From: a virus
Lineage: Duplodnaviria; Caudoviricetes
Reading direction: 5' to 3' (one strand)
IMG/VR virus record: IMGVR_UViG_3300043414_000270
Coordinates: 1-24,295 of that record
DNA: 24,295 bases
The notes beneath the pieces were generated by a model, which searched no databases, was not told where the DNA came from, and saw only the letters and a program-made list of their open reading frames with translations. Position 1 is the stretch's first letter. Each line of letters opens with the position of its first letter. This document shows positions 62 through 23,918 of the stretch, piece by piece. The position numbers and the translations under genes are program-made.

Positions 62-760
62 ATGACTGCCATCGTAGGTATTCAGGGAAAAGGCTGGGCA
101 GTAATAGCAGCAGATTCCATGACTACTTATGATGACAAACCGTACTATGCCAAAGGTATGGACAAAGCAATACGCAAGGGTGACTATGTGTTTGCCTTTG
201 CAGGAGATGCCATTGCTGGCAACATAGCAGAGTTTCTATGGACTCCGCCAAAGATTATTAAGACTATGCAACTTGATGCTTTTATGCAGGTCAAAGTGCT
301 TCCATCATTGCGAGATGCAATGAAAGAACATGGTTACGAGCCAGATGTAATTAAAGACCCCAACTCTGGCTTTGATGCGCTTATGTGTTTAAACGGCGTT
401 ATTTATGAAATTGACGAGGAGTACATGTGGTCACGAGATGACCGTGGACTTTACTCAGTAGGCAGTGGTGGGCAGTTAGCACTAGGTGCACTAGCCACTG
501 GCTTTAGTAAAAACTCAACAAAGGCAGCAGAGTTTGCTGCTCGTAGGGCAATCAAGATTTCCGCTGATTACTGTATTGGTGTTGGCGGAGATATAAAAGT
601 AATCACACAAAGGGGAAACACAATGGCTGCAAAGAAAAAGATTTCACCAGCAATGAAAAAGAAGGCTTATGCAATGGCTGAAAAGGCTGAACCAAAAAGT
701 GCAAAGGCTAAAGAAATGAAGGCTGGCATGGCAATGATGATGAAGAAAAAGGGTAAGTAA
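62..760 (+). CDS. HslV/proteasome beta-subunit-like Ntn-hydrolase (Thr protease) with in-frame basic C-terminal tail
   Basis: Starts M-T-AIVG...IAADS with Thr exposed after Met removal; has AGDA and GSGG..ALGAL motifs typical of proteasome-beta/HslV; RBS AAGGGG upstream. Confidence 0.8.
   Translation: MTAIVGIQGKGWAVIAADSMTTYDDKPYYAKGMDKAIRKGDYVFAFAGDAIAGNIAEFLWTPPKIIKTMQLDAFMQVKVLPSLRDAMKEHGYEPDVIKDPNSGFDALMCLNGVIYEIDEEYMWSRDDRGLYSVGSGGQLALGALATGFSKNSTKAAEFAARRAIKISADYCIGVGGDIKVITQRGNTMAAKKKISPAMKKKAYAMAEKAEPKSAKAKEMKAGMAMMMKKKGK
623..760 (+). CDS. Small Lys/Ala/Met-rich protein nested in-frame in the 3' end of the protease ORF (45 aa)
   Basis: AAGGGGAAACACA-ATG at 610-625; composition switches abruptly to MAAKKKISPAMKKK...KKKGK. 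Confidence 0.5.
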   Translation: MAAKKKISPAMKKKAYAMAEKAEPKSAKAKEMKAGMAMMMKKKGK

Positions 761-762
761 TC

Positions 763-888
763 ATGTGTACAACATGTGGATGCGGAAGTGCAGTTGTTAA
801 TCAAGACGACAACTATGGAACAATTAACCCTTATGGCATCGGCGGGCGTGATGTTAATACTCCGCCAGTCACTCTTGGCGACAAGTAA
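763..888 (+). CDS. 41-aa Cys-motif peptide (MCTTCGCGSAVVNQDDNYGTINPYGIGGRDVNTPPVTLGDK)
   Basis: Manual translation; fills the gap between flanking genes (starts 2 nt after the upstream stop, ends 9 nt before the next start); CxxCGC motif. Confidence 0.7.
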   Translation: MCTTCGCGSAVVNQDDNYGTINPYGIGGRDVNTPPVTLGDK

Positions 889-897
889 GGAAAACAA

Positions 898-1155
898 ATG
901 TCAGACCCTAGACTAAAACGAGCAGGAGTGTCGGGCTTTAATAAGCCTAAGCGCACACCAAGTCATCCAACAAAGTCACATGTAGTTGTGGCTAAGTCTG
1001 GTGAGCAGGTTAAAACTATTCGTTTTGGTCAGCAGGGTGTAAGTGGAGATAAAACTCCAACAGCAAGACAAAAATCATTTAAGGCTCGCCACGCAACAAA
1101 CATTGCTAAAGGCAAAATGAGCGCAGCATATTGGGCAGATAAGGTGAAATGGTAA
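898..1155 (+). CDS. Small basic phage protein (hypothetical)
   Basis: 85 aa, K/R-rich; RBS AAGGA; ends SAAYWADKVKW. Confidence 0.8.
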   Translation: MSDPRLKRAGVSGFNKPKRTPSHPTKSHVVVAKSGEQVKTIRFGQQGVSGDKTPTARQKSFKARHATNIAKGKMSAAYWADKVKW

Positions 1156-1316
1156 TGGCTAAAAAAGAAGTATGGGATAGACCAAACCCTAAGAAAAAAT
1201 CTACACCACTTTCACCCGCTGCTAAAGCATCAGCCAAGGCTGCTGCAAAAAAGGCTGGTAGAAAATATCCTAATCTTGTGGATAACATGAGAGCAGCACA
1301 GAAGAAAGGCAAGTAA
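1155..1316 (+). CDS. Small basic protein, 53 aa (MAKKEVWDRPNPKKKSTPLSPAAKASAKAAAKKAGRKYPNLVDNMRAAQKKGK)
   Basis: Manual translation; TAATG stop/start overlap with the upstream gene. Confidence 0.75.
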   Translation: MAKKEVWDRPNPKKKSTPLSPAAKASAKAAAKKAGRKYPNLVDNMRAAQKKGK

Positions 1317-1318
1317 CT

Positions 1319-1594
1319 ATGGCTACAGGTTATGAAGGTTCAACACTCGTTGCTGAATTAAATCGGCTTGCCAATGCTGGCACATATCCAGCACGCACTC
1401 TTTTTCTTGAGGCACAAGGAGCAGCAAATAAATATGCTGGCACCACAGGTCTAGGCATTTTGGCTGCTCTTAATTACAAGGTTAGTTCAACTCGTACACG
1501 AGATAAATACAAAGATTTAAATGCCGTATGCAATGAACTTGCTGGAACCACGGGCAAGTCAGCCGTATCAGCCTTAAGGAGCATTAACCTGTGA
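1319..1594 (+). CDS. Hypothetical virion-associated protein
   Basis: 91-aa ORF tightly packed in the structural operon; GTGA overlap with the next gene. Confidence 0.7.
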   Translation: MATGYEGSTLVAELNRLANAGTYPARTLFLEAQGAANKYAGTTGLGILAALNYKVSSTRTRDKYKDLNAVCNELAGTTGKSAVSALRSINL

Positions 1595-2508
1595 GCACCC
1601 TTGAACAAATTACTGACCGTGTGGATACACTCCTTCACGGCTACAGCCTTAACATGGAATCAACTACATGGTTAACTGGTGCTGTAACAACTACAACCCA
1701 GACAACCATTTCTGTAAATGATGCCAATGTTGTAAGCCGTGGCTTTATTCAAATTGAAGATGAGATTATGTATGTTAACTCTACTAGCAACATTGACAAT
1801 ACTCTTACCCTTGCACCATGGGGTCGTGGACAGCGTGGCACTATTGCAGCAACACACACAAACTCATCTAAAATTATTGTAGCCCCACTATTTCCACGCT
1901 ATGAAATTAAGCGTGCTATTAACGACACACTCAATGCAATGTACCCAAGCGTATTTGCTATTGGTCAATACCAGTTTTCATACATTGCTGCTCGTACAAC
2001 TTATGATATTCCAGATGCAGTACAAAATGTATTGGCTGTAAGCCATCAAGTAATTGGTCCATCTAAAGAGTGGCTACCAGTTCGCGCTTGGCAACTAGAC
2101 CGTACAGCAAACCCAACAGCCTTTGGCGATGGCACAAACTTTGGACACTCACTTGGTATCTACTCACCAGTAGTACCTGGTCGTACTGTCAATGTGGCTT
2201 ACTCAAAGCGCCCAACCATATTTGATTTAACTACAGCAACAAGTCAAGAATACTCAACAATAACTGGCATGCCTGACTACTCAGAAGATGTAGTGGTTTA
2301 TGGCGCAGCCTTTCGTATGATTTCTTTCCTAGACCCATCACGCCTTGGTGCGCTCTCTGCAGAAGCAGATGTGCTTGATAACCAGCGTGGAGCACGAAGT
2401 GGTGAAAACGCAGCACGCTTCTTGTTCAATGTTTACAACACTCGTTTAAACGAAGTGGCGGAGAACCAACGCCGTCAATTCCCAATTCGTTCACACTACC
2501 AGAGATAA
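1591..2508 (+). CDS. Putative head-tail adaptor / tail tubular protein
   Basis: 305-aa ORF with GTG start immediately upstream of the tail fibre; function inferred from position and size only. Confidence 0.5.
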   Translation: MSTLEQITDRVDTLLHGYSLNMESTTWLTGAVTTTTQTTISVNDANVVSRGFIQIEDEIMYVNSTSNIDNTLTLAPWGRGQRGTIAATHTNSSKIIVAPLFPRYEIKRAINDTLNAMYPSVFAIGQYQFSYIAARTTYDIPDAVQNVLAVSHQVIGPSKEWLPVRAWQLDRTANPTAFGDGTNFGHSLGIYSPVVPGRTVNVAYSKRPTIFDLTTATSQEYSTITGMPDYSEDVVVYGAAFRMISFLDPSRLGALSAEADVLDNQRGARSGENAARFLFNVYNTRLNEVAENQRRQFPIRSHYQR

Positions 2509-2517
2509 GGCACCCCC

Positions 2518-4713: not shown

Positions 4714-4714
4714 C

Positions 4715-5044
4715 TTGGCTACAACTTACAAGGTGCTAGGTCAAGTAGTTCCTAGCGCTAACACACTGACAACAGCATACACAGTACCTTCGGCAACGCA
4801 GACTGTTGTATCAACTATTACTGTTTGTAATCTTGGTGGTGCTCCAACAACTTACAAGATTGCTATTCGCCCAAGCGGAGCAGCCATTGATAATAAGCAT
4901 TACATTGCTTTTAGCGCTGGAGTAGCACCGCAAGACACAATTACCCTAACGCTAGGAGTTACTCTTGCCACAACAGATGTTGTGACAGTGGAATCAGTTA
5001 CTGGACTCGTAGCATTTAATCTATTCGGAAGCGAGATTGCATAA
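4715..5044 (+). CDS. Small tail-fibre-associated beta-rich protein
   Basis: TTG start after GGGAG; YTVP..T.TVVSTITVCN pattern resembles 6664..6966. Confidence 0.7.
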   Translation: MATTYKVLGQVVPSANTLTTAYTVPSATQTVVSTITVCNLGGAPTTYKIAIRPSGAAIDNKHYIAFSAGVAPQDTITLTLGVTLATTDVVTVESVTGLVAFNLFGSEIA

Positions 5045-5045
5045 C

Positions 5046-5939: not shown

Positions 5940-5977
5940 ATAAATGGTAATATGTTGCTCAAATTAAGGGGTGATAT

Positions 5978-6664
5978 ATGAAAGAGATAACATTTACAAA
6001 TAGGTATGGTTTTGATTTTTTCTCTCCGCAACCAGCGGTAAAGGTAATACCAGAGTGGTATAAAAAACAAAGCGAATATACCACTGGTGAAAAAAAAGTA
6101 TCGTTAGATAATTCAACACCTGCTACTGTAAAAAAATGTATGCCAGTATTTGATGCACTTACATCTGGCTATATTTTATTCACACCAGTAGATGTGTATG
6201 TATCCCAAAAAGATGGCATGCCTTATTACCAATGGTCATCTCAAGATGCTATTTCTTTTCATCCAGTTGCACAAGCAGATAATCACCCTGCTAAAAATGG
6301 GTTTCCTTATCCCAAATGGATGAACCCATGGGCAATTAAAACATCAAAAGGTTATTCAACTTTATTTATTTCACCTATGCACAATCCAAACAATATGTTT
6401 ACTGTGCTTGAAGGTGTAGTAGATACTGACACATACACCGAAATAGTTAATTTTCCATTTGTTCTTAAAGACCCGTTGTGGGAAGGCATGATTCCAGCGG
6501 GTACGCCAATGGTCCAAGTCATACCGTTTAAACGGGAAGCATGGAAAATGAAAATTGGTGGAGAAAAAGAACTAAAAGAAAACGCAAAAGTAGGAGCAAA
6601 GTTACACACTTTGTTTTTTAATAAATATAAAACATACTTCTGGTCCAGAAAGGAATACAAATAA
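5978..6664 (+). CDS. Hypothetical protein (possible beta-barrel/cupin-like, AT-rich accessory gene)
   Basis: 228 aa; RBS AAGGGG; TVKKCMPVFDA...GVVDTD...GTPMVQVIPFKRE; lower GC than neighbours. Confidence 0.7.
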   Translation: MKEITFTNRYGFDFFSPQPAVKVIPEWYKKQSEYTTGEKKVSLDNSTPATVKKCMPVFDALTSGYILFTPVDVYVSQKDGMPYYQWSSQDAISFHPVAQADNHPAKNGFPYPKWMNPWAIKTSKGYSTLFISPMHNPNNMFTVLEGVVDTDTYTEIVNFPFVLKDPLWEGMIPAGTPMVQVIPFKREAWKMKIGGEKELKENAKVGAKLHTLFFNKYKTYFWSRKEYK

Positions 6665-6966: not shown

Positions 6967-6983
6967 TACAGTAAATATATTTT

Positions 6984-7012: not shown

Positions 7013-7045
7013 CTATTTTTATGTCTTAATACTTAAGGAGATACA

Positions 7046-9076
7046 GTGGCTAGTCGTTCACCAGATATATCCGAGCGCACGATAATTGATTTATCTGGTC
7101 GCCTATCTACATACTACGATTTAAACGGTAACGCATTTGATGTGGCTATTGGTGGCTTGCCATTTATCATGGCGGTAACAGACAACACACCATACAAACG
7201 ACAGACTGCAGAGTTTCGTGCTCAGCGTGTAGACCAGATGCGTGACCCAGGTGAACACACACTTGCTGGTTCAGGTTACTGGACACGCAGCCAATCTTCT
7301 TGGCACTATGGTGAGGGTGTTCAATTCACTGAGCCTATGGAAGGCAACGACAACGAAGTTCGCTTTCGCTTCCGTGACTCCTACGGTGTAGATGTATGGA
7401 CTCCAGGACAAATTAACTTACTTAAAAAGACCACACTTGTTCAGGCTTTTAGCGGTGCTTGCAAGATAGATACAGGCGCTGATACCTCTGGTGTTGCCTT
7501 CCTTGTTGCAACAGATATGGCACCACGCGTTGCGCAAACCAATGCAATCTATAAAATTACAAGCGCTGGTACATCTACCGCCCTTGTCACCTTTGCTTCT
7601 ATTAGCAATGAAACAATCCTTGGCACTACATCTGATGGTACATACTTGTATGTGGCTACCACTGCTGGTATCTACGATGTTAAATTATCTGATGGAACAA
7701 TACATAAACATTATGCTTACAATGCTTTAACAGCAGACCATGTAGTTCTTAAGTATGTTAAAAGCCGTATTGTTGCTGCATTTAAATTTACCGATGGAAC
7801 ATACGCAGCCTATCAACTTACATTTTTAAATAAAGGTGCTGGTGCTGTAGTTGATATAAAATCAACAATGAACGCTGCCAGTGGAACTATTATTAACGGC
7901 TCAACAATCATGCCAACACTATGGACATGGACTGCAATAACCGAAGGTTCTAATGCTATCTACTTAGGTGGCTATGCTGGTGAGCACTCTAGTATTTTTA
8001 AATTAGCAGTAGATAATACTGGCGCTTTAGGAACTATTGTTACTGCTGCCGTAATGCCACGCGGTGAAATAGTATTATCTCTTTACACATACCTTGGCAC
8101 ATACCTTATGCTTGGCACAAGCAAGGGTGCACGCATTGCAACACTAGACCAAAACGGTGACATGAACTATGGACCATTGGTGTTTCACAATGAGAACGGT
8201 GTCTATGATTTTGAAGGGCGCGACTCATACATCTGGGCTGGCAATACCAACGGAGTAAATACCAGTTCAGGTACTACACGCATTAACCTTGGTCAACCAC
8301 TTACCCTCATTGGCTATGCTCAACCTATATCTACGGGTGTATATGCCCGTGCAACAGATGTCTTTGCAGATGGTATTACTGGCGCAGTAAAAGCAATTCG
8401 TATTCTTGGTGCTGGTAACCAAGTTGCTTTTGCAATCTCTGGCTCTGGCATTTGGTTACAACATGCAACAGACTTAGTTACATCAGGACAAATCCGCACT
8501 GGTCGTATTCGTTATGACACCATGGAAAACAAAGCATGGAAGCGTATCCGTATCCGTACCACTGATGACTTAGCAGGCGGAGATATTGAAGTCTATAAGA
8601 TTGGTCCGACATCGGACACCGTTGTGACTACACTTTATGAAGGCACTAGCACCACTGCTGATATTGATTTAAATGATGCTTACCCAGAAGCAGGACCTGA
8701 TGCATCGTTTAAACTTACCCTTACTCGTAACACTACTGATGCAACCACTGGTCCTGTAGTAGTGGGCATTGCTGTTAAGGCTTTGCCAACGCCTACTCGT
8801 GCACGCATCTTGCAAATCCCACTCTTTTGTTTTGACAAAGAAACAGACAAAACAGGACAAATCATTGGCTATGAAGGTTACTCAAAGGAACGCCTTAGTG
8901 CACTAGAAACTATTGAAGCCATGGGAGAAACAGTTATTCTCCAAGATTTCAACGCTGGTGGTGACCCATTTGAAGTTATCATTGACCAAGTTACTTTCAC
9001 TCGTTCCACTCCATCAAACCGTAACTACACAGGCTTTGGTGGCATCATACAAATCATAGCAAGAACGGTTGTTTAA
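7046..9076 (+). CDS. Large tail protein (beta-propeller-like, possible nozzle/tubular protein B)
   Basis: 676 aa, beta-rich; RBS AAGGAG and GTG start; function inferred from position. Confidence 0.55.
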   Translation: MASRSPDISERTIIDLSGRLSTYYDLNGNAFDVAIGGLPFIMAVTDNTPYKRQTAEFRAQRVDQMRDPGEHTLAGSGYWTRSQSSWHYGEGVQFTEPMEGNDNEVRFRFRDSYGVDVWTPGQINLLKKTTLVQAFSGACKIDTGADTSGVAFLVATDMAPRVAQTNAIYKITSAGTSTALVTFASISNETILGTTSDGTYLYVATTAGIYDVKLSDGTIHKHYAYNALTADHVVLKYVKSRIVAAFKFTDGTYAAYQLTFLNKGAGAVVDIKSTMNAASGTIINGSTIMPTLWTWTAITEGSNAIYLGGYAGEHSSIFKLAVDNTGALGTIVTAAVMPRGEIVLSLYTYLGTYLMLGTSKGARIATLDQNGDMNYGPLVFHNENGVYDFEGRDSYIWAGNTNGVNTSSGTTRINLGQPLTLIGYAQPISTGVYARATDVFADGITGAVKAIRILGAGNQVAFAISGSGIWLQHATDLVTSGQIRTGRIRYDTMENKAWKRIRIRTTDDLAGGDIEVYKIGPTSDTVVTTLYEGTSTTADIDLNDAYPEAGPDASFKLTLTRNTTDATTGPVVVGIAVKALPTPTRARILQIPLFCFDKETDKTGQIIGYEGYSKERLSALETIEAMGETVILQDFNAGGDPFEVIIDQVTFTRSTPSNRNYTGFGGIIQIIARTVV

Positions 9077-9078
9077 AC

Positions 9079-9273: not shown

Positions 9274-9286
9274 TTGAAAGGTTAAA

Positions 9287-11335: not shown

Positions 11336-11347
11336 GTTTAAACAGAG

Positions 11348-12374: not shown

Positions 12375-12507
12375 GAGTATTAAGTAACCTACGTAATGCG
12401 TTTAAACGGGTCAAGCGGTCTATCTGTTCTGACTTCTTGCCATAATGATAAAAAAATCTTGCAATGGGAAACCAAGTAATAATCATTAAGACTATAACTG
12501 CAATCAT

Positions 12508-12751: not shown

Positions 12752-12838
12752 GTTTAAACAAATTACAAGTTTGTAATTCCTTGGGCGTGTCGCCAGATAG
12801 AGCAGACATTGTGTAGTAATCTCCTCTATTGAAGGAGA
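12752..12838. promoter_or_regulatory. Divergent promoter region with operator-like inverted repeat
   Basis: GTTTAAAC 12752-59; AATTACAA-GT-TTGTAATT 12761-78; GGCGTGTCG 12784-92; candidate -10 TAATCT 12817-22; RBS AAGGAG. Confidence 0.5.
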
Positions 12839-15002: not shown

Positions 15003-15335
15003 ATGGACAAGCACGAGATGGAAAAGATATTAGTAAAGTTGAATTTACCTCAGGAACTACGGGAAACAATACTGACCGAACTCCCTCCTCTCTTTGAGAG
15101 GTTGGATGATATGGCTAAGAAAGCATACGACCCTACGCAAGTATGGTTAGAGTCAATACAATTTGCTGATTATGTAACACAAATAGGTGAACACATACAA
15201 TCGTGTGATTCAGAAATTTGCATAGATGAAGTATCTGAACAACTGATTAACATGTCTAACTCGTTTAAACAAATGGGTGAGAACGCACTTACACTGCTTG
15301 ATGAAATGGAAAAGGAATCAGATGGCGAACAGTAA
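15003..15335 (+). CDS. Hypothetical acidic helical protein
   Basis: 3' part of ORF 14640..15335; start 15003 or 15018 uncertain; overlaps the next start. Confidence 0.6.
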   Translation: MDKHEMEKILVKLNLPQELRETILTELPPLFERLDDMAKKAYDPTQVWLESIQFADYVTQIGEHIQSCDSEICIDEVSEQLINMSNSFKQMGENALTLLDEMEKESDGEQ

Positions 15336-16754: not shown

Positions 16755-17220
16755 GATTGGACACGAACCTTACCTTGGCAAGTTAGCAATCCCATACCTC
16801 ACACCATCGGGTGTGATTGATATTCGTTTTCGTAGTTTAAACAACGATGCGGGTCCAAAATATCTAAGCAGACCAGGTGCTAACACTCACATCTTTAATG
16901 TTCAAGCGCTCAATAATGATTCTGATTTTCTTGCAATATGTGAAGGTGAATTAGATACCATTGTTGCAACACAGGCTGGCTTTAATGCAGTCGGTTTGCC
17001 TGGTGCTAACAACTGGAAATCTTTTTATGGGCGTGTGCTTGCTGATTGGGCAAAGGTAATACTGTTATGCGATGGCGATAATGCTGGTCGTGAAATGGCT
17101 AAGAATCTAAGTAGAGAAATAGACAATGTGTTTCCCGTGTTCATGCCTGAGGGTCAGGATGTAAATGATGTCTACCTATCCGAAGGGGCAGAGGGTCTGC
17201 GCAAACGCGCAGGTGTTTAA
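16603..17220 (+). CDS. DNA primase catalytic (Toprim) subunit
   Basis: YL.SRGI, PKYL, ICEGELD, DGDNAG and DVND motifs; AAGGAAGG upstream of ATG 16603. Confidence 0.85.
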   Translation: MRLSKSQRELLEKATENYATNLTEILPYLTSRGITEQTARTFRLGYVREPEIGHEPYLGKLAIPYLTPSGVIDIRFRSLNNDAGPKYLSRPGANTHIFNVQALNNDSDFLAICEGELDTIVATQAGFNAVGLPGANNWKSFYGRVLADWAKVILLCDGDNAGREMAKNLSREIDNVFPVFMPEGQDVNDVYLSEGAEGLRKRAGV

Positions 17221-17224
17221 ACAC

Positions 17225-17611
17225 ATGATGGTAAACAAATCTTCGTTTGATTTGGATTTTGGATATGGCAGGAAAGGTGAGCAGTTAGTTGAGGAACTGC
17301 TAACTGGTGGTAAGACAGTTGAAGTAAAGCGTGACCGTAAGTGGATAATAACTAACAACCTGTATGTTGAAACTGAGTGCTTCTTTAAAAAAAGAAATGC
17401 AGTAGCACCGTCAGGTTTGTCTGTAACTGAGGCTGCTTACTGGGCGTTCGTGCTTGAAGGCAGTACCCTTATCGTACCAACGGATGCACTGCGCTATGCA
17501 GTTGCTAACTTTGGCAGAGAAATTACTTGCGAGATACCACCCAACACAAGCAAGGGTTATCTCATAACAGTAGATGATTTAATGACGGCGACAAGGAAGT
17601 ATAACAAGTGA
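17225..17611 (+). CDS. Hypothetical PD-(D/E)XK-like protein
   Basis: FDLD..YG..GE, TVEVKRD, NLYVE; start at ATG 17225 or 17228. Confidence 0.6.
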   Translation: MMVNKSSFDLDFGYGRKGEQLVEELLTGGKTVEVKRDRKWIITNNLYVETECFFKKRNAVAPSGLSVTEAAYWAFVLEGSTLIVPTDALRYAVANFGREITCEIPPNTSKGYLITVDDLMTATRKYNK

Positions 17612-18258
17612 TAAACAAAGAAGAACTATGGGAGCAAGTGTATAAAGTTGCTCGCCAATCTGCTTCCCGTTGCGCTCGCATCCATCGTAACTTGGTTTCA
17701 TCTGATGATGTATACCAACACCTTAACCTATGGGCAGTAGAACACTGGCATAAGATTGAGGAGTGGGAAGGGCAAGAGTCTTTAGTGTTTAAACTTAAGC
17801 GCACGTTTCACAACGAGGCGCAGAAGTTTGCTGCTAAAGAACGTGCATATAAATCTAAATCAAAACCTAATGATTCTTTTTATTACACGCATGAAATCTT
17901 GCAAGAGTTACTTAAAGATGTATGGAATTATGAACAGTGGGTGCAGTCAGGTTCACATGCTGATGCTGAGTTTATTCAAAACACAAGCAAACCAAGCGAG
18001 GGTATGAATCGTGAGGCTATGTTGTCTGATGTTTCGTTTGCACTTGAACGTTTAAACGAACAGGATAGGTTGCTCTTGCGGCGTAGGTTTGAGGGAGGCG
18101 GCTTGGATTTTGATGCGCTTGCCATTGAATACTCTGCAAGCGAGGAGGCACTGCGCAAAAGGGTGAGTCGTGCTCTTACTAAACTACAAGACAGGTTAGG
18201 TGGCGAGCAACCTCAATGGAACAACCGCCGATACAAGAAACAAGAGAAGGAACAGTAA
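17608..18258 (+). CDS. RNA polymerase sigma-70-like factor
   Basis: DDVYQHL region-2-like segment; region-4 HTH L.E.DR.LL..RF......ALA..Y..SEEALRKRVSRAL.KL. Confidence 0.75.
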   Translation: MINKEELWEQVYKVARQSASRCARIHRNLVSSDDVYQHLNLWAVEHWHKIEEWEGQESLVFKLKRTFHNEAQKFAAKERAYKSKSKPNDSFYYTHEILQELLKDVWNYEQWVQSGSHADAEFIQNTSKPSEGMNREAMLSDVSFALERLNEQDRLLLRRRFEGGGLDFDALAIEYSASEEALRKRVSRALTKLQDRLGGEQPQWNNRRYKKQEKEQ

Positions 18259-18371
18259 TGGAAAAGACACTGGCAATACATCTTACTGAGCAGCGCGAGC
18301 AGATAGCAAGAGAGATTGAAAATAAAATTGGTTGCGAAGATGCAGCAGAAATAGCGAGAGGTGTTAAATGA
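18258..18371 (+). CDS. 37-aa hypothetical protein (MEKTLAIHLTEQREQIAREIENKIGCEDAAEIARGVK)
   Basis: TAATG and ATGA overlaps at both ends; RBS AAGGA. Confidence 0.65.
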   Translation: MEKTLAIHLTEQREQIAREIENKIGCEDAAEIARGVK

Positions 18372-18919
18372 TTATTGGTTTAAGTGGATACGCACAGTCA
18401 GGCAAAGATACAGTTGCTGAGTTGTTGTGTTTAAACTATGGGTTTAAACGCATCTCGTTTGCACTACCTATGCGTGATGCAATCTATACGCTTAACCCAT
18501 ACATTATTAACGAAGGTTTAAATGAGGGTCAATGGCGTGTGGCTGATGAGATTGACGAGCATGGGTGGGAGATTGCTAAGCAGCACCCCGAAGTGCGTAG
18601 GTTAATGCAAGTATTTGGCACCGAGGTTGGGCGCAATATGTTTGGTGAAAACTTTTGGATTGACCAAGCGTTTAAACGGGCAGAAGAATACGAACGAGTT
18701 GTGTTCTCTGATGTGCGCTTTCCTAATGAAGCAAAGGCTATTCAGAATAAAGGTGGTGATGTGTGGCGTATCAACAGACACAATCATGCACCAGTTAATA
18801 CACATGCATCTGAAAGTGCTATGAATAACTTTATGTTTAAACATGTTATCTACAATGATGGCACGCTTGATGATTTATCTGATGAAGTATTTATGTTGGC
18901 TAAACAAATAAGTTTGTAA
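18368..18919 (+). CDS. Deoxynucleoside monophosphate kinase
   Basis: IIGLSGYAQSGKDT, R..MQ.FGTEVGR, SDVRFPNE and H.SE motifs. Confidence 0.9.
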   Translation: MIIGLSGYAQSGKDTVAELLCLNYGFKRISFALPMRDAIYTLNPYIINEGLNEGQWRVADEIDEHGWEIAKQHPEVRRLMQVFGTEVGRNMFGENFWIDQAFKRAEEYERVVFSDVRFPNEAKAIQNKGGDVWRINRHNHAPVNTHASESAMNNFMFKHVIYNDGTLDDLSDEVFMLAKQISL

Positions 18920-18923
18920 AATG

Positions 18924-18965
18924 CAGAAGCCTCGCAAAGGACTGGAATACTCTGCGAGGCTTTTG
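18924..18965. terminator. Hairpin / probable bidirectional terminator between convergent arms
   Basis: CAGAAGCCTCGCA...TGCGAGGCTTTTG stem; a second imperfect hairpin (GGGCA..TGCCC) follows at about 18969-19009. Confidence 0.7.
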
Positions 18966-19019
18966 TATGGGCACCTTCTCTACGCTTCCCCTACATAAAG
19001 GAGATGCCCTACATAAAAA

Positions 19020-19382
19020 CTATACCATATTGAGTGGCTCAGTAATAACCCACCCTCTACGTTTTCTCTCTACTTGCCTACGATATGGCGTGCTTCCACC
19101 CCAAATTCCGTAGCGTTCATGGGCTAAGCCCCACTCTAAACATGTGAGCATGACTGGACACTCAACACACATGCGGGCAAAGACTTGCTCCTCCTCAGGT
19201 CGGAAGATTTCTTTATCGGGAAAGAATAATTCTGTGTCTATCCCTCTGCATATCCCTTGCTCTGCAAGTTTCCTGTTCCACCGTAGTTTAAACGCAGTGC
19301 CAGTCTTACCCCGATTAGTTTTTTCTTCTTGCGCTATAACTTTGTGGTGCTCAGGTCTAATAAGTTTTGTATGGGCTGGCAT
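19020..19382 (-). CDS. whiB: WhiB-family Fe-S transcription factor
   Basis: C(RG)...LFFP...CVECPV...CLEW...GIWGG four-Cys and G-turn motifs; start 19382 or 19394. Confidence 0.9.
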   Translation of the reverse strand: MPAHTKLIRPEHHKVIAQEEKTNRGKTGTAFKLRWNRKLAEQGICRGIDTELFFPDKEIFRPEEEQVFARMCVECPVMLTCLEWGLAHERYGIWGGSTPYRRQVERKRRGWVITEPLNMV

Positions 19383-19545
19383 ATCCTGCTCCAATCATAT
19401 AATCAAGCAGGTTAGTTAGTAGTAAGTCGGCTTTCATTGGGCGTATCACTACTGGGTCAAGTGCATCCTCGGCATTGAACGTCAAGCCTTGGTCAACGAG
19501 GTGTTGTTTAAGTTCCATTACGAGTGCTTGATACATCAGTACCAC
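19357..19545 (-). CDS. Hypothetical protein
   Basis: 62-aa ORF overlapping both neighbours in the operon. Confidence 0.6.
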   Translation of the reverse strand: MVLMYQALVMELKQHLVDQGLTFNAEDALDPVVIRPMKADLLLTNLLDYMIGAGYASPYKTY

Positions 19546-19979
19546 CCCATTGCCAAGTGATGAGCGTATGCTTTACATATCCCACCTGTCTTTCCGTAGT
19601 GTCGGTCAATATAAATAAGTCCAGCATCCACCTGTTTAAACCCATCCCATGTTGGTTTAACTTTAATGTTTACCCATGTTTGTGGTTTAAGTTGTGCAAT
19701 ACCCGATGCCCCACCGCGCTTGTTTAATGCAGCAGGTCGCCAGTTGCTTTCCTTCATCCACAATTCATAGAGGCATGGATACTGTTCAAGTTTGTTTTGT
19801 TCTGTTAAACGTTGAATAGCATGGTGTTGGTACTCGTTGGTGTAGTAAGCAACCACCTCACCCTTGGGTGGGTGTGAAACTATCTGTACTCGTGGGTTAA
19901 GCACGAGAAAGATTCCGAGTACCACCACCGTTACAATCCATATCCGCGCATGCGGGTGTACGTGTTTAAACAAGTTCAC
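19536..19979 (-). CDS. Membrane-anchored lytic transglycosylase (SLT/Rpf-like)
   Basis: N-terminal TM helix; CL..LW.KESNW...A.N...A.GI.Q; YI..HYG...C.A..H....GWY. Confidence 0.85.
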   Translation of the reverse strand: MNLFKHVHPHARIWIVTVVVLGIFLVLNPRVQIVSHPPKGEVVAYYTNEYQHHAIQRLTEQNKLEQYPCLYELWMKESNWRPAALNKRGGASGIAQLKPQTWVNIKVKPTWDGFKQVDAGLIYIDRHYGKTGGICKAYAHHLAMGWY

Positions 19980-20343
19980 TTGCTATCTCCTTATGCTCAG
20001 GCAATACACGCTTGATGAAGTCAAGTAACCCATCGTCAATGTTTGTATCGTACCCATCGCCATCGTCAACACCAAGAACAATCATGTTGCCCATAAGCAG
20101 TGGGTTATTACCTAGCATGAAGGAGAGTGCACCACCGAAGCCGTTCATTGGTAGTCCTAGCATGATGCCCTCCTCGTTTACGTAAGCAGTGGCAAAGTCG
20201 TTACCGAAAGCATCGTAAAGTTTTACGATTTCAATTAGCCCACCCACTGCATCTTGATAGTCGGAGAGTTGTTTAAACACTCTCTCCTCGTATGTTCCGT
20301 CCGTGTGTAGTACCACGCCTTTGATTTCAGGATGTTTACTCAT
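19966..20343 (-). CDS. DUF3846-like hypothetical protein
   Basis: LSDYQDAVGGLIE...YVNEEG...GLP.N motif. Confidence 0.7.
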   Translation of the reverse strand: MSKHPEIKGVVLHTDGTYEERVFKQLSDYQDAVGGLIEIVKLYDAFGNDFATAYVNEEGIMLGLPMNGFGGALSFMLGNNPLLMGNMIVLGVDDGDGYDTNIDDGLLDFIKRVLPEHKEIASELV

Positions 20344-20536
20344 GGTTTTCTCCTCTCAAATTAGCAATCGTTTGTTCAAGCATGGCTATGCGTTCAGCCT
20401 TGTTTAAACGAGGTGTGATTCCGTATCTTAACTTGGCTGTCTTTAGCATTGCTTCGTATTCGGTGGTGTGATTAGAGATTAGTTCCTCTACCGCCTCGTA
20501 CTTTGCCCTTGCGTACATGTTGCTTGAAATACTCAT
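20336..20536 (-). CDS. Hypothetical protein
   Basis: 66 aa; GGAGG RBS; tightly packed. Confidence 0.7.
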   Translation of the reverse strand: MSISSNMYARAKYEAVEELISNHTTEYEAMLKTAKLRYGITPRLNKAERIAMLEQTIANLRGENHE

Positions 20537-20538
20537 TG

Positions 20539-20721
20539 TTATACCTCCACATCTATTCGTTCAGGTTCAGTACCGCATGGATATTTTGCTGCTGCATGCC
20601 ATTGCTTGGATGAGCAGTCTGCACATCGTACCTCATGGTCTAAGTCCATCATCCATAAGTGCGTTGCGTAGTTTTGTTTTGCTTGTTCAGGTGTACCATC
20701 AAATGGTTTTGGTATGTTCAT
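20539..20721 (-). CDS. Small Cys/His (possible Zn-binding) protein
   Basis: 60 aa; H-W...C..C.......PC. Confidence 0.65.
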   Translation of the reverse strand: MNIPKPFDGTPEQAKQNYATHLWMMDLDHEVRCADCSSKQWHAAAKYPCGTEPERIDVEV

Positions 20722-20723
20722 GT

Positions 20724-20891
20724 TTAAACACGCTCTTTAAGATTTACTTGTTGACGATACGCGTTAACGATACGGCGCAAGTTAGTGTTATCTTTTGCGA
20801 GGCGTGCGTTCTGTTTCATTGCCATGCCAAGCACGATTAACACGCTAAGCAAAGCAATCATTACTGCAATCATATCTCCAGTTGTAAGCAT
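20724..20891 (-). CDS. Small single-TM protein with coiled-coil
   Basis: MLTTGDMIAVMIALLSVLIVLGM...; ATG 20891 preceded by GATTGGA and by the promoter below. Confidence 0.7.
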   Translation of the reverse strand: MLTTGDMIAVMIALLSVLIVLGMAMKQNARLAKDNTNLRRIVNAYRQQVNLKERV

Positions 20892-20937
20892 TATGTTTTC
20901 CAATCTGTTTGTTTTAGTAGCGTTCGCTACATAAGAA

Positions 20938-21009
20938 ATACTCCTCCTTAATGAATAAAATGTCAAGGATTTCGTACATATTTTTTTTAATTTTGTACAA
21001 ATTTATTTT
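20938..21009 (-). promoter_or_regulatory. Sigma-70-type promoter with AT-rich UP element
   Basis: On the - strand: TTGACA (20966-20961), N17, GAGTAT (20943-20938), preceded by A-tracts. Confidence 0.65.
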
Positions 21010-21197
21010 GTTTAAACGCTTGACTTTAAGAAAGTTCCAGGTATATTGCTGTTGTCATAGTGTTTAAACAGTGCGTTTAAACAATGAACTCCAGACTTCC
21101 AGGTACACTAGCAATCTTGGTTGTTTAAACAGTTGTCTATCCCAGGCAACACTCGTTGTGCAGATGTGGTCATCGTTTAAACACCATGAAGATGGCA

Positions 21198-21226
21198 TAA
21201 AAATAACCCCGCCGAAGCGGGGCTAT
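21198..21226 (-). terminator. Intrinsic terminator after GATase
   Basis: On the - strand: CCCCGC-TTCG-GCGGGG then TTATTTTT (cUUCGg tetraloop). Confidence 0.85.
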
Positions 21227-21236
21227 CTTTATTTAC

Positions 21237-22043
21237 TTATGCGGTGTATGAATCCTCATCATCCCACCAGTGGTACTGCTCCTTGGCACGTGGCGAGTAA
21301 TCCCTCCACGTGTATGGGTCAACGGCTTTGTATGGTGTGAAGGTCTGATGCTCCACAATCTTTCCGTCCTTGACCTTGAAATACTCACCCTCTTTGGCTG
21401 AGTATTCCCACACTAGGTCTGAATCCAGCATGATGCTTGCATTGAATATGGTTTCCGCAGTGGAGCCATATACAAGGGAGCCTGATTTAGTCTGACCAAT
21501 CCACAACGGCGATGAGTTGAGGCGTGCTAGATGTAGCGTTCGTGCATCGTTGTTGCCAATCCACGCAAGGGCTGCGGTGCCTTGCACCTGAGGCAGCACG
21601 CTAGTTGGATGCGCAGTACCAGCGAAGGCAAGCAGCGCAGCCACTGCCTCCGAATCCACCTGACCACGGCGCTTGACGTTGAGTTGTTTAAACAACGCGA
21701 TGTCGTTGCTGATATGTCCGTTGTGAGTGAGCACGATATTGCCACGGGGAATTGGGTGGTTGTTATCGGTGTTGCTTGGGTTACCTTGCGTAGCCCAGCG
21801 AGTGTGAAGGATTGCAGTTGCAGCGTTTAAACACAAGCGTGCACCTACCTTGGGTAGATATTGGCTCGCTGCAATTGGTGCCTTACTGATAACGCGATTG
21901 CCTGAGGTTGAGTTAATCCATGCTGCACCCGTGGCGTGTTGTCCACGGTGTTCAATGTCCAGCAGCATCTGACCTGCAAGGCTAGTCGTGTTCGTTGATT
22001 GGTGGTCTTTAGGATTGAGGCAATAGCCTGCTATTCCGCACAT
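21237..22043 (-). CDS. Class II (Ntn) glutamine amidotransferase
   Basis: MCGIAG, HRG..ATG, HTRWATQG, NNHP, HNGHI.N and VDSE motifs. Confidence 0.9.
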   Translation of the reverse strand: MCGIAGYCLNPKDHQSTNTTSLAGQMLLDIEHRGQHATGAAWINSTSGNRVISKAPIAASQYLPKVGARLCLNAATAILHTRWATQGNPSNTDNNHPIPRGNIVLTHNGHISNDIALFKQLNVKRRGQVDSEAVAALLAFAGTAHPTSVLPQVQGTAALAWIGNNDARTLHLARLNSSPLWIGQTKSGSLVYGSTAETIFNASIMLDSDLVWEYSAKEGEYFKVKDGKIVEHQTFTPYKAVDPYTWRDYSPRAKEQYHWWDDEDSYTA

Positions 22044-22222
22044 ATATTCTCCAGTCCGTTCGTTGGTTGATAAGTGAATTGTATCACCGCGTGGGTGTCG
22101 CGGTCAATGACCCTGTTTAAACGCGAGATGGTCGCCAGATAGCGAGCATCCTGCTCGGTGTATAGCCCACTGAACCTGCGCCCAGTGGGGTCAACACCTC
22201 TCACGATGTATAATTTACTCAT
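22031..22222 (-). CDS. Hypothetical protein (MSKLYIVRGVDPTGRRF...)
   Basis: ATG 22222 overlaps the end of the upstream peptide gene. Confidence 0.5.
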   Translation of the reverse strand: MSKLYIVRGVDPTGRRFSGLYTEQDARYLATISRLNRVIDRDTHAVIQFTYQPTNGLENICAE

Positions 22223-22304
22223 CGCTCGCGAGCATGTAATAAGTGAAGGCTGCGAGCGTGATAATAATAAACGCTCGTCCATCGGTGAAGAATAGGGGCA
22301 GCAT
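22215..22304 (-). CDS. 29-aa hydrophobic peptide (MLPLFFTDGRAFIIITLAAFTYYMLASDE)
   Basis: Manual translation; starts 2 nt after the upstream stop; single TM-like segment. Confidence 0.5.
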   Translation of the reverse strand: MLPLFFTDGRAFIIITLAAFTYYMLASDE

Positions 22305-22306
22305 GT

Positions 22307-22462
22307 TTAAACACCTGCCTTTATGTTCATCACTAGCGCAGTGAATTTAACCTCGCCAGTATTAAGCGCAGCGATAGCCTCGTCAATCTCTTTCATGCTT
22401 GATGCGTGCAGGTTTACACCTACGCAACGGCTACCTTGAAAGATTGCATATTCTATATTCAT
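22307..22462 (-). CDS. 51-aa hypothetical protein (MNIEYAIFQGSRCVGVNLHASSMKEIDEAIAALNTGEVKFTALVMNIKAGV)
   Basis: Manual translation; GGAG RBS; stop lies inside GTTTAAAC. Confidence 0.7.
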   Translation of the reverse strand: MNIEYAIFQGSRCVGVNLHASSMKEIDEAIAALNTGEVKFTALVMNIKAGV

Positions 22463-22483
22463 GATTTCTCCAGTCTGTTTAAA

Positions 22484-22576
22484 CACGACTCACCCTCTGT
22501 GGGTCGTGCTCGTAGGATTGCTCCTACTAGTGCCCGCAGAGGGGATTGCACCCTCACGCACCCACTAGGGGCGGGC
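22484..22576 (-). ncRNA. Structured intergenic RNA with tRNA-like mini-domain
   Basis: GCCCGC/GCGGGC stem enclosing CCC-TAGT-GGG and GAGGG-TGCAATC-CCCTC, then GTAGGA-GCAA-TCCTAC and CACGAC/GTCGTG hairpins. Confidence 0.5.
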
Positions 22577-22586
22577 TGCCTATTGC

Positions 22587-23342
22587 TTAGGCTTGACCTT
22601 GCAAGTCTGCTGCTCGGCGCTTTAGGTAATCGGCAGTGGTTGGATTGAGATTGCCCGCATTGGTGATTGCGTTGATGAGTAACTCGCAGTTGTTTAAACG
22701 TTGCGCGGTGCCTTGGTAGACATCGGCGAGCAGGTTGCTCGCAGAATAATCTATGAGTGAGGCGATGAACTCTGCCCACGCCACTGCCTTGCGACCATTG
22801 AGCGTGCCTTGGTGCAGGCGCACCTCCAACGTACCGTGGCGCTCAAAAGACATGAGGTTGAGCGATTGGTAACGGTCACCGTGCACGTCCGAGATATTGC
22901 CACCTCGTACGCGCTCGGCGTTGCGCTCTGCCTGCGCGATTGTGAGAGTTTTGGTGTATTGGTTGTTTAAACGAGATGATGCAACGAGCGCTCCGATTGC
23001 ATCGTGCGCGGTGTACCAATTCATAATGAAATTGGCGATTGCATCGTGCGACAATGAGCGGGCACCGATATGCACGTGATAACCCGTGCTGCGGTCAACC
23101 TTGCCACCTGCACCGAGGAGGGCGCGGGTAACTGCCTGCGCATCGTTTAAACGCTCGGCGGTAAGGATTGGAGATACAACCTCCGCACCGTTGACGGAGC
23201 CATCCATAACTGCGCTCCATGACGTGTGCAGCCCGTGAGGGCGAGCCTCCACGCACTCAACGCCTGCAGCGTTTAGCACGCGAGATGCCTGCGCAACCGA
23301 GATACCTGCGACCTCTAGTTCCAACCCGAAAGTGTGGCTCAT
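22587..23342 (-). CDS. Putative amidoligase (COOH-NH2 ligase, GCS/GS-like fold)
   Basis: TFGLELEV, DGSV, EVVSP, STGYHVH, RY..LN and TLEVRLHQGTLN motifs. Confidence 0.85.
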   Translation of the reverse strand: MSHTFGLELEVAGISVAQASRVLNAAGVECVEARPHGLHTSWSAVMDGSVNGAEVVSPILTAERLNDAQAVTRALLGAGGKVDRSTGYHVHIGARSLSHDAIANFIMNWYTAHDAIGALVASSRLNNQYTKTLTIAQAERNAERVRGGNISDVHGDRYQSLNLMSFERHGTLEVRLHQGTLNGRKAVAWAEFIASLIDYSASNLLADVYQGTAQRLNNCELLINAITNAGNLNPTTADYLKRRAADLQGQA

Positions 23343-23863
23343 GAGTTCACCTGCATTGTGTTTAAACACGCAGGGCAGATTGGAGCGCCGAGGCGGTCAA
23401 GCGTTGCACGAGATACGCGCACGATATATGAGTCGCGCTCGCATGCTGCGCGGATGAGGCGGGTGGATTGTTTAGGTGCAGCCTCAACCTCCAACCGAGC
23501 GTGAGGATAAGCGCCGAGCATTGCGAGTGTGCCATAAACCCATGAGGGCAGGCTCACCAATTCGGGAGCAACCTGCGGAGCAGCGTTGCGCCATTGTGAG
23601 CCATGAGCCATTGCGAGCAGTGGCAGTACGAGGCGAGCAACACGCTGCGCATCGTCAACGGTTGGTGAGATGAAAATCTCGGCGGTAAAATCCTCCGAGG
23701 CGGTTGGAGGCACGATTGCAGCATCTGCAACGGTGCGACCTGTACGAGGTGGGAATCCGCAGGAGAGGCGAATCGCTGCCTCCTCGGCGTTGTTTAAACG
23801 CCCTGCGATGTGTGGGCGTGCAGCAATTGCAAGTGCTGCGAGCCATTGTTCACGGTTGTGCAT
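23339..23863 (-). CDS. SprT-like protein lacking HExxH
   Basis: REQWL, IRLSCGFP, EIFISP, LG.YPHA.L, KQSTRL and G.PICP.C resemble phage SprT-like proteins as I recall them; no HExxH present. Confidence 0.55.
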   Translation of the reverse strand: MHNREQWLAALAIAARPHIAGRLNNAEEAAIRLSCGFPPRTGRTVADAAIVPPTASEDFTAEIFISPTVDDAQRVARLVLPLLAMAHGSQWRNAAPQVAPELVSLPSWVYGTLAMLGAYPHARLEVEAAPKQSTRLIRAACERDSYIVRVSRATLDRLGAPICPACLNTMQVNS

Positions 23864-23918
23864 GTTGGTTTCCAATCGGTTTAAACGCTGCCCAATTGCA
23901 GCGTGCTGCGCACAGTCA

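Follow-up and report, generated by a model that had tools for sequence, protein, structure and literature searches.

An iterated DNA word in an uncultured tailed phage and a SprT-like zinc-ribbon protein as its candidate reader

HIP1 is a highly iterated 8-bp palindrome of cyanobacteria that occurs chromosome-wide and is linked to methyltransferases, and the start-associated sequences of Cluster K mycobacteriophages are a short conserved motif situated directly upstream of many start codons. This study concerns another such word, the 8-bp palindrome GTTTAAAC, which is present in 39 copies in a 24,295-bp stretch of DNA from an uncultured tailed phage (IMG/VR record IMGVR_UViG_3300043414_000270, the whole of which is called the window here), together with a SprT-like protein encoded in the window that is a candidate for its reader. 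The closest known parallel, already proposed in the initial annotation of this DNA, is the stoperator system of mycobacteriophage L5. The accessible part of the published account of Cluster A describes the sites of the L5/Bxb1 repressor as dozens of short sequences, some in promoters and most not (PMC6550527).

Measured against the Cluster A arrays, as far as that partial text describes them, the window's array is alike in having dozens of dispersed sites (at least 20 dispersed copies, here 39 in 24.3 kb), and in a word that differs between relatives and co-varies with its own reader. The word of a sister clade is biased to one orientation relative to transcription, as the Cluster A sites are. 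The window's array differs in that the word is 8 bp long and palindromic (and has no orientation), that 29 of the 39 copies overlap codons and do not lie in short intergenic gaps, that the copies are concentrated in a block of about 7-9 kb, that no integrase or other sign of lysogeny was seen among the scanned ORFs of a complete relative, and that binding is predicted. The candidate reader is SprT-like with a zinc-ribbon tail, not a helix-turn-helix (HTH) immunity repressor. With HIP1 the word shares its length and symmetry, its frequency far beyond chance and its presence in and outside genes; unlike HIP1, it is found in phages of many hosts and tracks the gene for a predicted DNA-binding protein, and no methyltransferase was found in scans of the window and of the complete relative G002. 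Venkman, a word-bearing phage, has an annotated methyltransferase. The sister clade's arrangement TTAAGACAGGAG-N-ATG recalls the Cluster K start-associated sequences, whereas the window copies are palindromic and mostly not at gene starts.

The family of the candidate reader brings a different comparison. To our knowledge, SPRTN (Spartan) and Wss1 do not read a DNA sequence. The window protein resembles them in a weak zincin-like fold match (6mdx, 5xbn) and a small, putatively zinc-binding C-terminal module, and differs from them in lacking HExxH. A preprint on Cluster AZ phages, in its accessible part, presents the SprT-like protein as a conserved DNA-binding protein possibly tied to lysogeny control, and that part describes no iterated word, though the AZ phage Tweety19 has 27 copies of GTGTAAAC (10.1101/2025.05.26.655371). 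Searches of openly available main texts turned up neither the word nor any tie between it and SprT-like proteins. Here we propose that a SprT-like zinc-ribbon protein of the phage itself, protease-dead by its sequence, binds the 39 copies, and that it would thereby repress its own promoter and block or time transcription of the reverse arm and of the end of the replication operon; we give this explanation an even chance of being right.

The word array and its conservation

All 39 exact copies of GTTTAAAC lie at the coordinates given by the initial annotation, which had set them against an expectation from base composition of fewer than one. In 100 dinucleotide-preserving shuffles the mean was 0.52 and the largest count 3, and 0 of 100 reached 39. 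The word has a 10-mer form, TGTTTAAACA, and the single-base variants GTGTAAAC and GTTTGAAC; one-mismatch variants of GTTTAAAC number only 11 in the window, beside the 39 exact copies. Counting from the printed contexts upheld the earlier figure of 30 copies that extend to YGTTTAAACR, including all 19 from 19964 to 23792; the nine without these flanks are at 8707, 11336, 16835, 17787, 18429, 18442, 19286, 19634 and 23879. The steep rise in density reported earlier (8 copies below 15 kb and 30 in 16.8-23.9 kb) was likewise reproduced, with 8 copies below 15 kb and 30 between 16835 and 23886. The dense zone does include the most GC-rich part of the window, the G+C content (GC) being 0.49-0.57 at 21-24 kb and about 0.42-0.46 elsewhere.

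Scans against PHROGs and Pfam gave the following blocks of genes, over which the sites are unevenly spread (ORF, open reading frame; dNMP, deoxynucleoside monophosphate):

62-11335, plus strand: structural and lysis block (HslV-like peptidase, tail fibre, endolysin); 6 sites, 0.53 per kb, 0.26 sites expected
11383-12732, minus strand: short block (endonuclease V, HNH nuclease)
12842-18919, plus strand: replication block (exonuclease, DnaB-like helicase, family-2 glycosyltransferase, RusA, primase in two overlapping ORFs, sigma factor, dNMP kinase); 5' half, 1 site, 0.27 per kb; 3' half (last ~2.5 kb), 8 sites, 3.25 per kb
19020-23863, minus strand: reverse arm, converging on the replication block (WhiB, SLT-like protein, small ORFs, amidotransferase, Amidoligase_2); 22 sites, 4.12 per kb

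As even the structural block is over expectation, the excess extends over the genome and has a steep peak in one place.

Genic copies fall in all three frames and on both strands, and at five sites (9071, 17215, 19964, 20722 and 22305) the TAA of the word is a gene's stop codon. The enrichment persisted in codon-preserving shuffles: 200 runs within genes gave a mean of 16.2 and a maximum of 20, and 200 runs within arms a mean of 15.3 and a maximum of 21, against the 39 observed. Ten sites, non-coding or in overlaps, lie outside the shuffled codons and are fixed by construction in these runs; among coding sites alone, about 29 were observed and about 6 are left by shuffling. Even that null runs high, since the very codons that make up the word are reused. 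Taken with the conservation of the sites over control 8-mers (below), these counts support the earlier proposal that selection acts on the DNA word and not on the encoded proteins.

Word pairs exactly 13 bp apart, start to start, occur in the window (18429-18449 and 21062-21082) and in G011 (three pairs), G012 and G013. No spacing of 15-31 bp was seen, spacings of 44-52 bp are common, and 52 bp recurs six times, partly in related genomes. The recurrent spacings hint at a preferred geometry of neighbouring sites.

Relatives were sought among viral contigs with the sigma factor as query; 150 were confirmed and 80 kept. Forty of the 80 (the a group) carry GTTTAAAC at more than 1 per kb, 35 (the b group) have almost none and carry TGTCTTAA/TTAAGACA, with the core CTTAAG, instead, and 5 belong to neither group. 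In this sister clade the word CTTAAGACA thus stands in place of the whole GTTTAAAC array. Complete genomes have 29-45 copies of the b word or 28-58 of GTTTAAAC, and in every one of them the word is densest over a single shared block, which joins the reverse arm to the last part of the replication operon. The complete relatives are about 40 kb long, assembled as circles with terminal repeats of 69-123 bp; in them the reverse arm is internal and its start diverges from the late operon. The idea that the gradient runs toward a physical end of the genome fails on these genomes, where the dense zone is an internal block of about 9 kb made up of the ~5-kb reverse arm and the 3' half of the replication operon.

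Across seven a-word relatives, window sites are exact at 21/27, 18/25, 19/23, 19/26, 9/18, 9/13 and 5/9 aligned positions, whereas control 8-mers in the same seven alignments are exact at 22.9, 20.8, 23.0, 19.2, 14.8, 11.9 and 7.2%. This blastn mapping is conservative, because site 17215 is lost in four relatives by blastn yet kept in 5/5 a-group genomes by MAFFT. In a MAFFT alignment of the primase-sigma region, two of the five conserved columns have GTCTTAA or CTTAAG in b genomes where a genomes have GTTTAAAC; at these two columns the position persists and the word changes. The b word has a strand bias, with 125 sense and 45 antisense copies in five genomes, and often lies directly 5' of a Shine-Dalgarno sequence. 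An iterated word, the same or a different one, a gradient over the same block and a co-varying gene were all found among relatives, where the initial annotation had suggested looking for them.

The candidate reader and its pairing with the word

The initial annotation saw no cognate protein in the window, a statement that no longer holds, as a candidate is encoded there:

23339..23863, minus strand: candidate reader gene, SprT-like, 174 aa; first gene of the reverse arm, start set by orthologues

The orthologues begin at residue 69 of a longer ORF, 23339-24067, which places the gene at 23339-23863. Its C-terminal tail is zinc-ribbon-like, with K131, Q132, S, T134 and R135 (motif KQSTR), C141 and C163-P-A-C166. 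At the catalytic positions the window protein has P81, L82 and M85, where 90% of 81 aligned family members have H, E and H, and the four a-group rows of that alignment read P, L and M/L. The tail residues Q132, T134, R135, C141, R149 and C163 are 91-100% conserved over the 81 members and kept in the window protein, C141 and C163 being invariant; K131, the N-terminal R-E-x-W-L and a P-H pair are also kept. Judged by its sequence, the window protein is a protease-dead SprT-like protein.

The protein has no Pfam match at E ≤ 1 and does not reach the PF10263 cut-off. In a six-frame search PF10263 matched 0/6 a-group records and 4/4 b-group genomes, 3 of these above the cut-off; at the same place, as first gene of the arm, b genomes encode a Pfam SprT-like protein with HEVAH. 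The a-type and b-type proteins are homologous in their C-terminal tails (pairwise E 3e-5). Among cultured phages, tblastn matched 122 records, with a query coverage of 80% or more in 113; nearly all of the 40 matches listed bear the annotation SprT-like protease, and most come from Arthrobacter and Microbacterium phages, with homology over 93-100% of the length. A family profile found 3338 representatives at 50% identity (E ≤ 0.001), and HExxH is kept in 144 of the best 150.

An AlphaFold2 model built on the 81 sequences has a mean pLDDT (predicted local distance difference test) of 93.3. Compared by VIA-align with a library of 48,161 chains, residues 1-117 matched zincin-type peptidases at Z 4.2-5.4, for example abylysin (4jiu, Z 5.0), Spartan (6mdx, Z 4.8, root-mean-square deviation 4.6, 88 aligned) and Wss1 (5xbn, Z 4.2), and residues 131-174 matched small Zn-ribbon modules at Z 3.5-3.8. 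The best PDB match by sequence was Spartan (E 0.11), in the HExxH region of the family profile only, and the ESM Atlas gave no usable match. A homodimer model scored 0.67, against 0.33 for the best of three controls; that mark was reached by 20/30 proteins solved as pairs of one chain and by 1/23 solved as single chains, counts that are only rough, as a custom alignment was used. The homodimer runs agreed in at least 91% of contacts, with a partner pLDDT of at least 79. The modelling supports homodimer pairing, and a symmetric dimer would plausibly fit the palindrome. The earlier picture of a protein-bound lattice on one arm stands in part: the copies behave like binding sites, the word co-varies with a gene and a dimer is plausible from the model, but the dense zone is not at a physical end of the genome.

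Within the window's family, all 23 a-word loci that include the SprT-like gene encode a KQ[ST]T tail and no HExxH, and all 16 such b-word loci encode a KGR/KSR tail with HExxH present, the loci of each kind being phylogenetically linked. Seventeen genomes outside the family were examined, further cultured phages being picked from the tblastn listings. The KQxTR tail co-occurs with enriched GTTTAAAC or GTGTAAAC in 12 genomes from about 7 phage lineages, and the hosts of cultured carriers are Methylophilales, Arthrobacter, Streptomyces, Microbacterium, Enterobacter, E. coli, Pseudomonas and Achromobacter. The pairing of word type and tail thus extends across unrelated phages. The following cultured phages carry a KQ[STG]TR tail:

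Venkman (host Methylophilales, 34% GC): 34 GTTTAAAC vs 1.4 expected
Arthrobacter phage Tweety19 (Cluster AZ, 66% GC): 27 GTGTAAAC vs 0.4 expected
Streptomyces phage Microdon: 43 GTGTAAAC vs 0.4 expected
Microbacterium phage Gretchen: 14 GTGTAAAC and 2 GTTTAAAC; reversed-word control 0
Enterobacter phage Arya: 7 GTTTAAAC vs 0.44 expected
E. coli phage ECO1230-10: 5 GTTTAAAC vs 0.46 expected
Pseudomonas phage Persinger: 4 GTTTAAAC vs 0.17 expected
Achromobacter phage Mano: 4 GTTTAAAC vs 0.14 expected

In all of these proteins K-Q-[S/T/G]-T-R is joined to a cysteine-bearing ribbon, like the window's and that of G011, a 30%-GC viral contig outside the family that was found only through the paired word and has 19 copies of GTTTAAAC. 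The SprT-like copy of G011, seen by Pfam and alignment only, is of the active type. In Tweety19, by the annotation of its record, every gene but one is encoded on a single strand, and 19 of the 27 copies read GTTTACAC there. SprT-like proteins with other tails come from phages poor in the word: Eden (KSRSGKS) and Psa21 have 0 copies and FP1 has 1, the last two with QPKGWFLV and no cysteines. Curtobacterium phage Donkey, which has a sigma-like protein and no SprT-like gene, has 0 copies; in Cluster AZ a sigma-like protein accompanies the SprT-like gene. Among 25 viral loci found by the paired word, the SprT-like profile matched only G011 and L101, the latter with 6 copies in 4.3 kb and the tail KQTTRM; two other dense paired-word loci are fragments of the window's own family that do not reach the gene. 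The same profile had 0 matches on 120 paired-word loci from cellular genomes.

Other genes were considered as reader. The protein comparison set the window against complete genomes, five with the a word and three with the b word, and against two b-word fragments; in it three neighbouring genes proved confined to the a group, namely ORF 23339-24067 and the genes for amidotransferase and amidoligase. These last two and the glycosyltransferase were set aside, having no tblastn match in the word-bearing Venkman, Tweety19 and G011. The sigma factor was rejected as well: it is present in both word groups at 77-90% identity, Donkey has a sigma-like protein and no word, and no tblastn match was found in Venkman or G011. 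Of the window and G002 proteins, the SprT-like one alone is matched by tblastn in Venkman as well as in Tweety19. A 148-aa protein (window 17165-17611, plus strand; phrog_13596) has as its only match outside the family the word-rich G011 (33% identity, E 2e-4). Its true start is likely 17225, right after a word copy, and by eye it looks like a PD-(D/E)xK nuclease.

In 13 of 14 GTTTAAAC/GTGTAAAC genomes the SprT-like ATG is preceded, at 11-85 nt, by the start of a word copy:

Window family: window -23; G002 -53; G003 -66; G004 -11; G005 -31
Low-copy phages: Mano -25; Arya -28; Persinger -26; ECO1230-10 -27
Others: G011 -81; Tweety19 -44 and -85; Microdon -79; Gretchen about -53

The exception is Venkman, where the SprT-like gene is last in its operon and a copy lies within its first 25 nt. 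Density does not account for this placement, since four of these genomes, each of 42-44 kb, hold just 4-7 copies. The ECO1230-10 copy starts 8 nt past a TATAAT box, and that of Arya at the same distance past TAAAAT, which by sequence is where a repressor operator would lie.

Copies in large late genes were seen at matching positions with similar flanks in Mano (2413), Arya (2386) and Persinger (758), and again in Mano (8168) and Arya (8138); even sparse intragenic copies are therefore conserved. Microbacterium phage Eden (NC_048017.1) has a conserved ~25-bp motif, TGTTCATA(t/c)(c/t)tctat..tagc, in 7 copies in both orientations, including 31447 and 31705; two of these copies are found in the 400 bp that precede the SprT-like gene. 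The top word of FP1 is TACTTCTTC, with 12 copies. The top words of Eden and FP1 look like promoter-type repeats.

Individual sites and the rest of the window

The copies of GTTTAAAC in the window are listed below. Where conservation is given, "exact in x/y" refers to aligned word-bearing relatives by blastn mapping, unless MAFFT is stated.

387..394: in the HslV-like peptidase gene; exact in 5/5
2444..2451: exact in 3/5
6526..6533: exact match in the window; no aligned relative
8707..8714: exact in 5/5
9071..9078: gene junction GTT-TAA-AC-ATG; exact in 0/3
11336..11343: directly past a stop codon; exact in 5/5
12400..12407: intergenic; exact in 3/3
12752..12759: divergent intergenic region ahead of the replication block; exact in 2/5
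15263..15270: just 5' of the glycosyltransferase start; exact in 4/6
16835..16842: primase gene; exact in 6/7; MAFFT 5/5 a-group genomes
17215..17222: primase stop, ahead of the next ATG; blastn 3/7, MAFFT 5/5 a-group genomes
17787..17794: sigma-factor gene; exact in 7/7
18050..18057: sigma-factor gene; exact in 6/6
18429..18436: first of a 13-bp-spaced pair, dNMP kinase gene; exact in 6/7
18442..18449: second of the 13-bp-spaced pair; exact in 0/7
18670..18677: exact in 4/7
18835..18842: exact in 4/7
19286..19293: WhiB gene; exact in 5/5
19634..19641: exact in 3/6
19964..19971: gives a minus-strand stop codon; exact in 5/5
20271..20278: exact in 5/5
20402..20409: exact in 1/1
20722..20729: minus-strand junction GTT-TAA-AC-ATG
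21010, 21062, 21075, 21123, 21175: five copies in the non-coding region 20967..21236
21686..21693: amidotransferase gene; exact in 6/7
21825..21832: amidotransferase gene; exact in 3/5
22115..22122: exact in 1/1
22305..22312: minus-strand junction GTT-TAA-AC-ATG
22477..22484: followed by GGAG and ATG on the minus strand
22692..22699: amidoligase gene; exact in 1/1
22965..22972: amidoligase gene; exact in 4/4
23145..23152: amidoligase gene; exact in 3/3
23360..23367: near the 3' end of the candidate reader gene, ~20 nt before the amidoligase start; exact in 0/3
23792..23799: within the candidate reader gene; exact in 0/3
23879..23886: putative autoregulatory operator; first base 23 nt upstream of the candidate reader ATG

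The non-coding region 20967-21236 is flanked by a terminator hairpin (21207-21222) after the amidotransferase gene and by a TTGAC(A/T) -35-like box (20962-20967), which is conserved and may belong to an internal minus-strand promoter ahead of the next genes. G002 and G004 are laid out alike, with 4-5 copies, and so is G003 in the terminator-proximal part, an arrangement that suggests control of an internal promoter or of read-through. A plus-strand promoter-like sequence (TTGACT-16-TATATT at 21020-21047) was discarded, as it is not kept in G002 or G004; that scan found 6 promoter-like sites against a shuffle mean of 6.9, no excess.

The window is the whole IMG/VR record, linear and by estimate ~60% complete, of an uncultured phage of ~40 kb. 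The phage has 44% GC and encodes WhiB and a sigma factor, and megablast against cultured phages gave a sole match, of 258 bp. A look-up of RNA runs listed none for positions 16500-24295. Genes named in the text have these positions:

15277-16053, plus strand: family-2 glycosyltransferase, replication block
17608-18258, plus strand: sigma factor, replication block
18368-18919, plus strand: dNMP kinase, replication block
21237-22043, minus strand: class-II amidotransferase, reverse arm
~22587-23338, minus strand: Amidoligase_2 protein, reverse arm

The amidoligase and amidotransferase, with the nearby glycosyltransferase and dNMP kinase, could form a module for DNA or cell-wall modification, one that does not accompany the word outside the window's family. 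No integrase or other sign of lysogeny and no HTH repressor was seen among the scanned ORFs of the window and of G002, for which 21 ORFs were compared with PHROGs and 42 with Pfam, plus homologues of window proteins.

The primase is spread over two ORFs in different frames with a 164-nt overlap, a zinc-finger part (16374-16754) and a TOPRIM part (16591-17220), both on the plus strand. Relatives have the same arrangement (G002, 17108-17518 and 17358-17984, for example), which is either a split gene or a programmed frameshift. The HslV/proteasome-like peptidase of the structural block (62-760, plus strand) is encoded directly 3' of the major head protein gene in complete relatives, where the late operon runs terminase, portal, a 2209-aa protein and major head protein. 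The 2209-aa protein of G002 (L111:9872-16501, plus strand) has an ADP-ribosyltransferase exoenzyme-type domain (PF03496, E 7e-9, residues 844-980) and is probably a large virion or ejected protein; its part of the genome is missing from the window. At 24150-24210 a G+C-rich hairpin and the T run behind it have the look of a plus-strand terminator, and an imperfect ATGT/GTAT repeat tract comes next, just upstream of the start region of the reverse arm.

Proposed function and competing explanations

If the zinc-ribbon tail reads the word, as we infer, the candidate reader would bind the copies, probably as a dimer. The bound protein would repress its own promoter, with the upstream copy as operator, and would hinder RNA polymerase at many internal copies, which would act as roadblocks by analogy with the Cluster A stoperators. 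Such roadblocks might shut down or time the reverse arm together with the sigma factor and the other distal replication genes, and through the dense block the balance between protein and site number would set early and middle expression. Proteolysis is not the purpose of the array in this phage, because the a-group protein lacks the catalytic residues and keeps the densest arrays.

Several observations weigh against this proposal. All of its support is correlational, drawn from sequence and modelling, and the step of repression or roadblock is argued by analogy. Conserved sites also lie within late genes, for which a simple early shut-off does not account. The gene-word link is co-inherited within lineages, and the independent lineages number about 7, not 12; SprT-like genes without the word exist (Eden, FP1 and Psa21), and the tail subtype was defined after the data had been seen. 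Of the four cysteines usual in the tail, the window protein has three, as the first pair is without its second member. Both sets of VIA-align scores are middling, for the tail and for the N-terminal domain, the tool itself rating them so, and Foldseek found no match in the PDB at E ≤ 0.001. The words GTGTAAAC and CTTAAGACA are non-palindromic and fit a symmetric dimer poorly, and the strand bias and Shine-Dalgarno position of the b word could mean a role at the RNA level or one coupled to transcription.

We think it unlikely that the copies merely tether a DNA-dependent SprT-type protease, here an inactive shell, on early DNA, as a shield against host DNA-bound proteins (restriction enzymes, nucleoid silencers) and with no regulator involved. 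The retention of HExxH across most of the best family representatives, the weak resemblance of the N-terminal domain to Spartan, Wss1 and abylysin folds, the density of sites on a block of small, presumably early genes, and one database record that titles a homologue "antirestriction protein" (the record name only) would suit a tether, yet all 23 a-group proteins seen lack catalytic residues and go with the densest arrays, the 4-7 copies of some phages are too few for a coat, and a site at the gene's own promoter is what one would expect of a regulator. Still less probable is a word that acts in RNA, as a messenger site for a translational repressor or endoribonuclease near ribosome-binding sites or start codons. 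Its best points are the sister clade, where TTAAGACA is sense in 125 of 170 cases and often directly ahead of GGAG-N5-7-ATG, and the window copies that abut start codons as GTTTAAACATG (9071, 20722 and 22305), a junction also found in Venkman. But recognition of RNA would need neither the strict palindrome nor the symmetric Y/R flanks that 30 of the 39 window copies have, most copies lie deep within genes in any frame, those in 20967-21236 sit between a terminator and a promoter-like box, and the use of junctions is explicable as the cheapest place for a word that contains TAA.

The remaining explanations lie further from the evidence. That the word marks a sequence-specific DNA modification, or an interplay with restriction-modification, in the manner of HIP1 and multiplied by biased repair or selection, we regard as very improbable. 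Glycosyltransferases, dNMP kinases and amidoligase/amidotransferase pairs occur in base-hypermodification pathways; the phage encodes a glycosyltransferase, a dNMP kinase and the pair of Amidoligase_2 protein and class-II amidotransferase, and each of the five complete a-word genomes has this pair, which none of the three complete b-word genomes has. Against this, and against the HIP1-like methylation that the initial annotation had listed, no DNA methyltransferase was found among the scanned ORFs of complete G002 or the window homologues, and amidoligase, amidotransferase and glycosyltransferase are without a tblastn match in the word-bearing phages already named. A role in replication or segregation, with the five-copy non-coding cluster as an iteron origin or the array as a centromere-like loading zone, seems more improbable again: the cluster does adjoin an A/T run, spacings of 13 bp and about 48-52 bp recur and the dense block adjoins primase and helicase genes, but most copies are scattered through 7 kb of genes, nothing like the cluster occurs in phages with 4-7 copies, and no initiator or ParB-like gene was found among the scanned ORFs of the window and G002. 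For a host protein that reads the sites, or a mirrored signature of the host genome, no point in favour was found, and we give this scarcely any credence. The carriers infect Actinobacteria as well as Beta- and Gammaproteobacteria. A paired-word scan of one genome per prokaryote species gave ~260 stretches, close to the ~140 expected (a hand estimate from 16 fixed bases and 596 Gb), and 96 of the 120 cellular loci fetched held only the pair, the largest count being 6. The host nucleoid or partition protein suggested earlier is disfavoured by this span of hosts and by the lack of an array at the 120 cellular loci.

New here are the protease-dead candidate reader, the sister clade with an active protease and another word, the KQxTR signature and the fixed operator position in low-copy phages. 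Beyond binding by the SprT-like protein in this one phage, a broader and more tentative possibility is that these proteins form an undescribed, widespread class of phage regulators derived from SprT/Spartan-type proteases, whose KQxTR tail reads GTTTAAAC/GTGTAAAC, which control their own genes, and for which, in some lineages, arrays of 30-60 copies in coding DNA would serve as a timer sensitive to copy number, the protease having been discarded here. Early in infection, a little protein would silence early and middle genes, the phage sigma factor among them; replication would then multiply the sites, which would soak up the protein and release late expression.

If the tail does read the word, a family known for the sequence-indifferent removal of proteins from DNA would also contain sequence-specific readers, in phages of both Actinobacteria and Proteobacteria. 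The arrays would then be the second independent example, after the mycobacteriophage stoperators, of operators spread over a whole genome, here mostly in coding sequence, and would explain an odd genome signature that recurs in lake and soil phages. Several carriers are cultured (ECO1230-10, Arya and the Arthrobacter, Streptomyces and Microbacterium phages), which makes the proposal directly testable, and the pairing of word and gene could help to annotate the regulators and regulons of uncultured phages.

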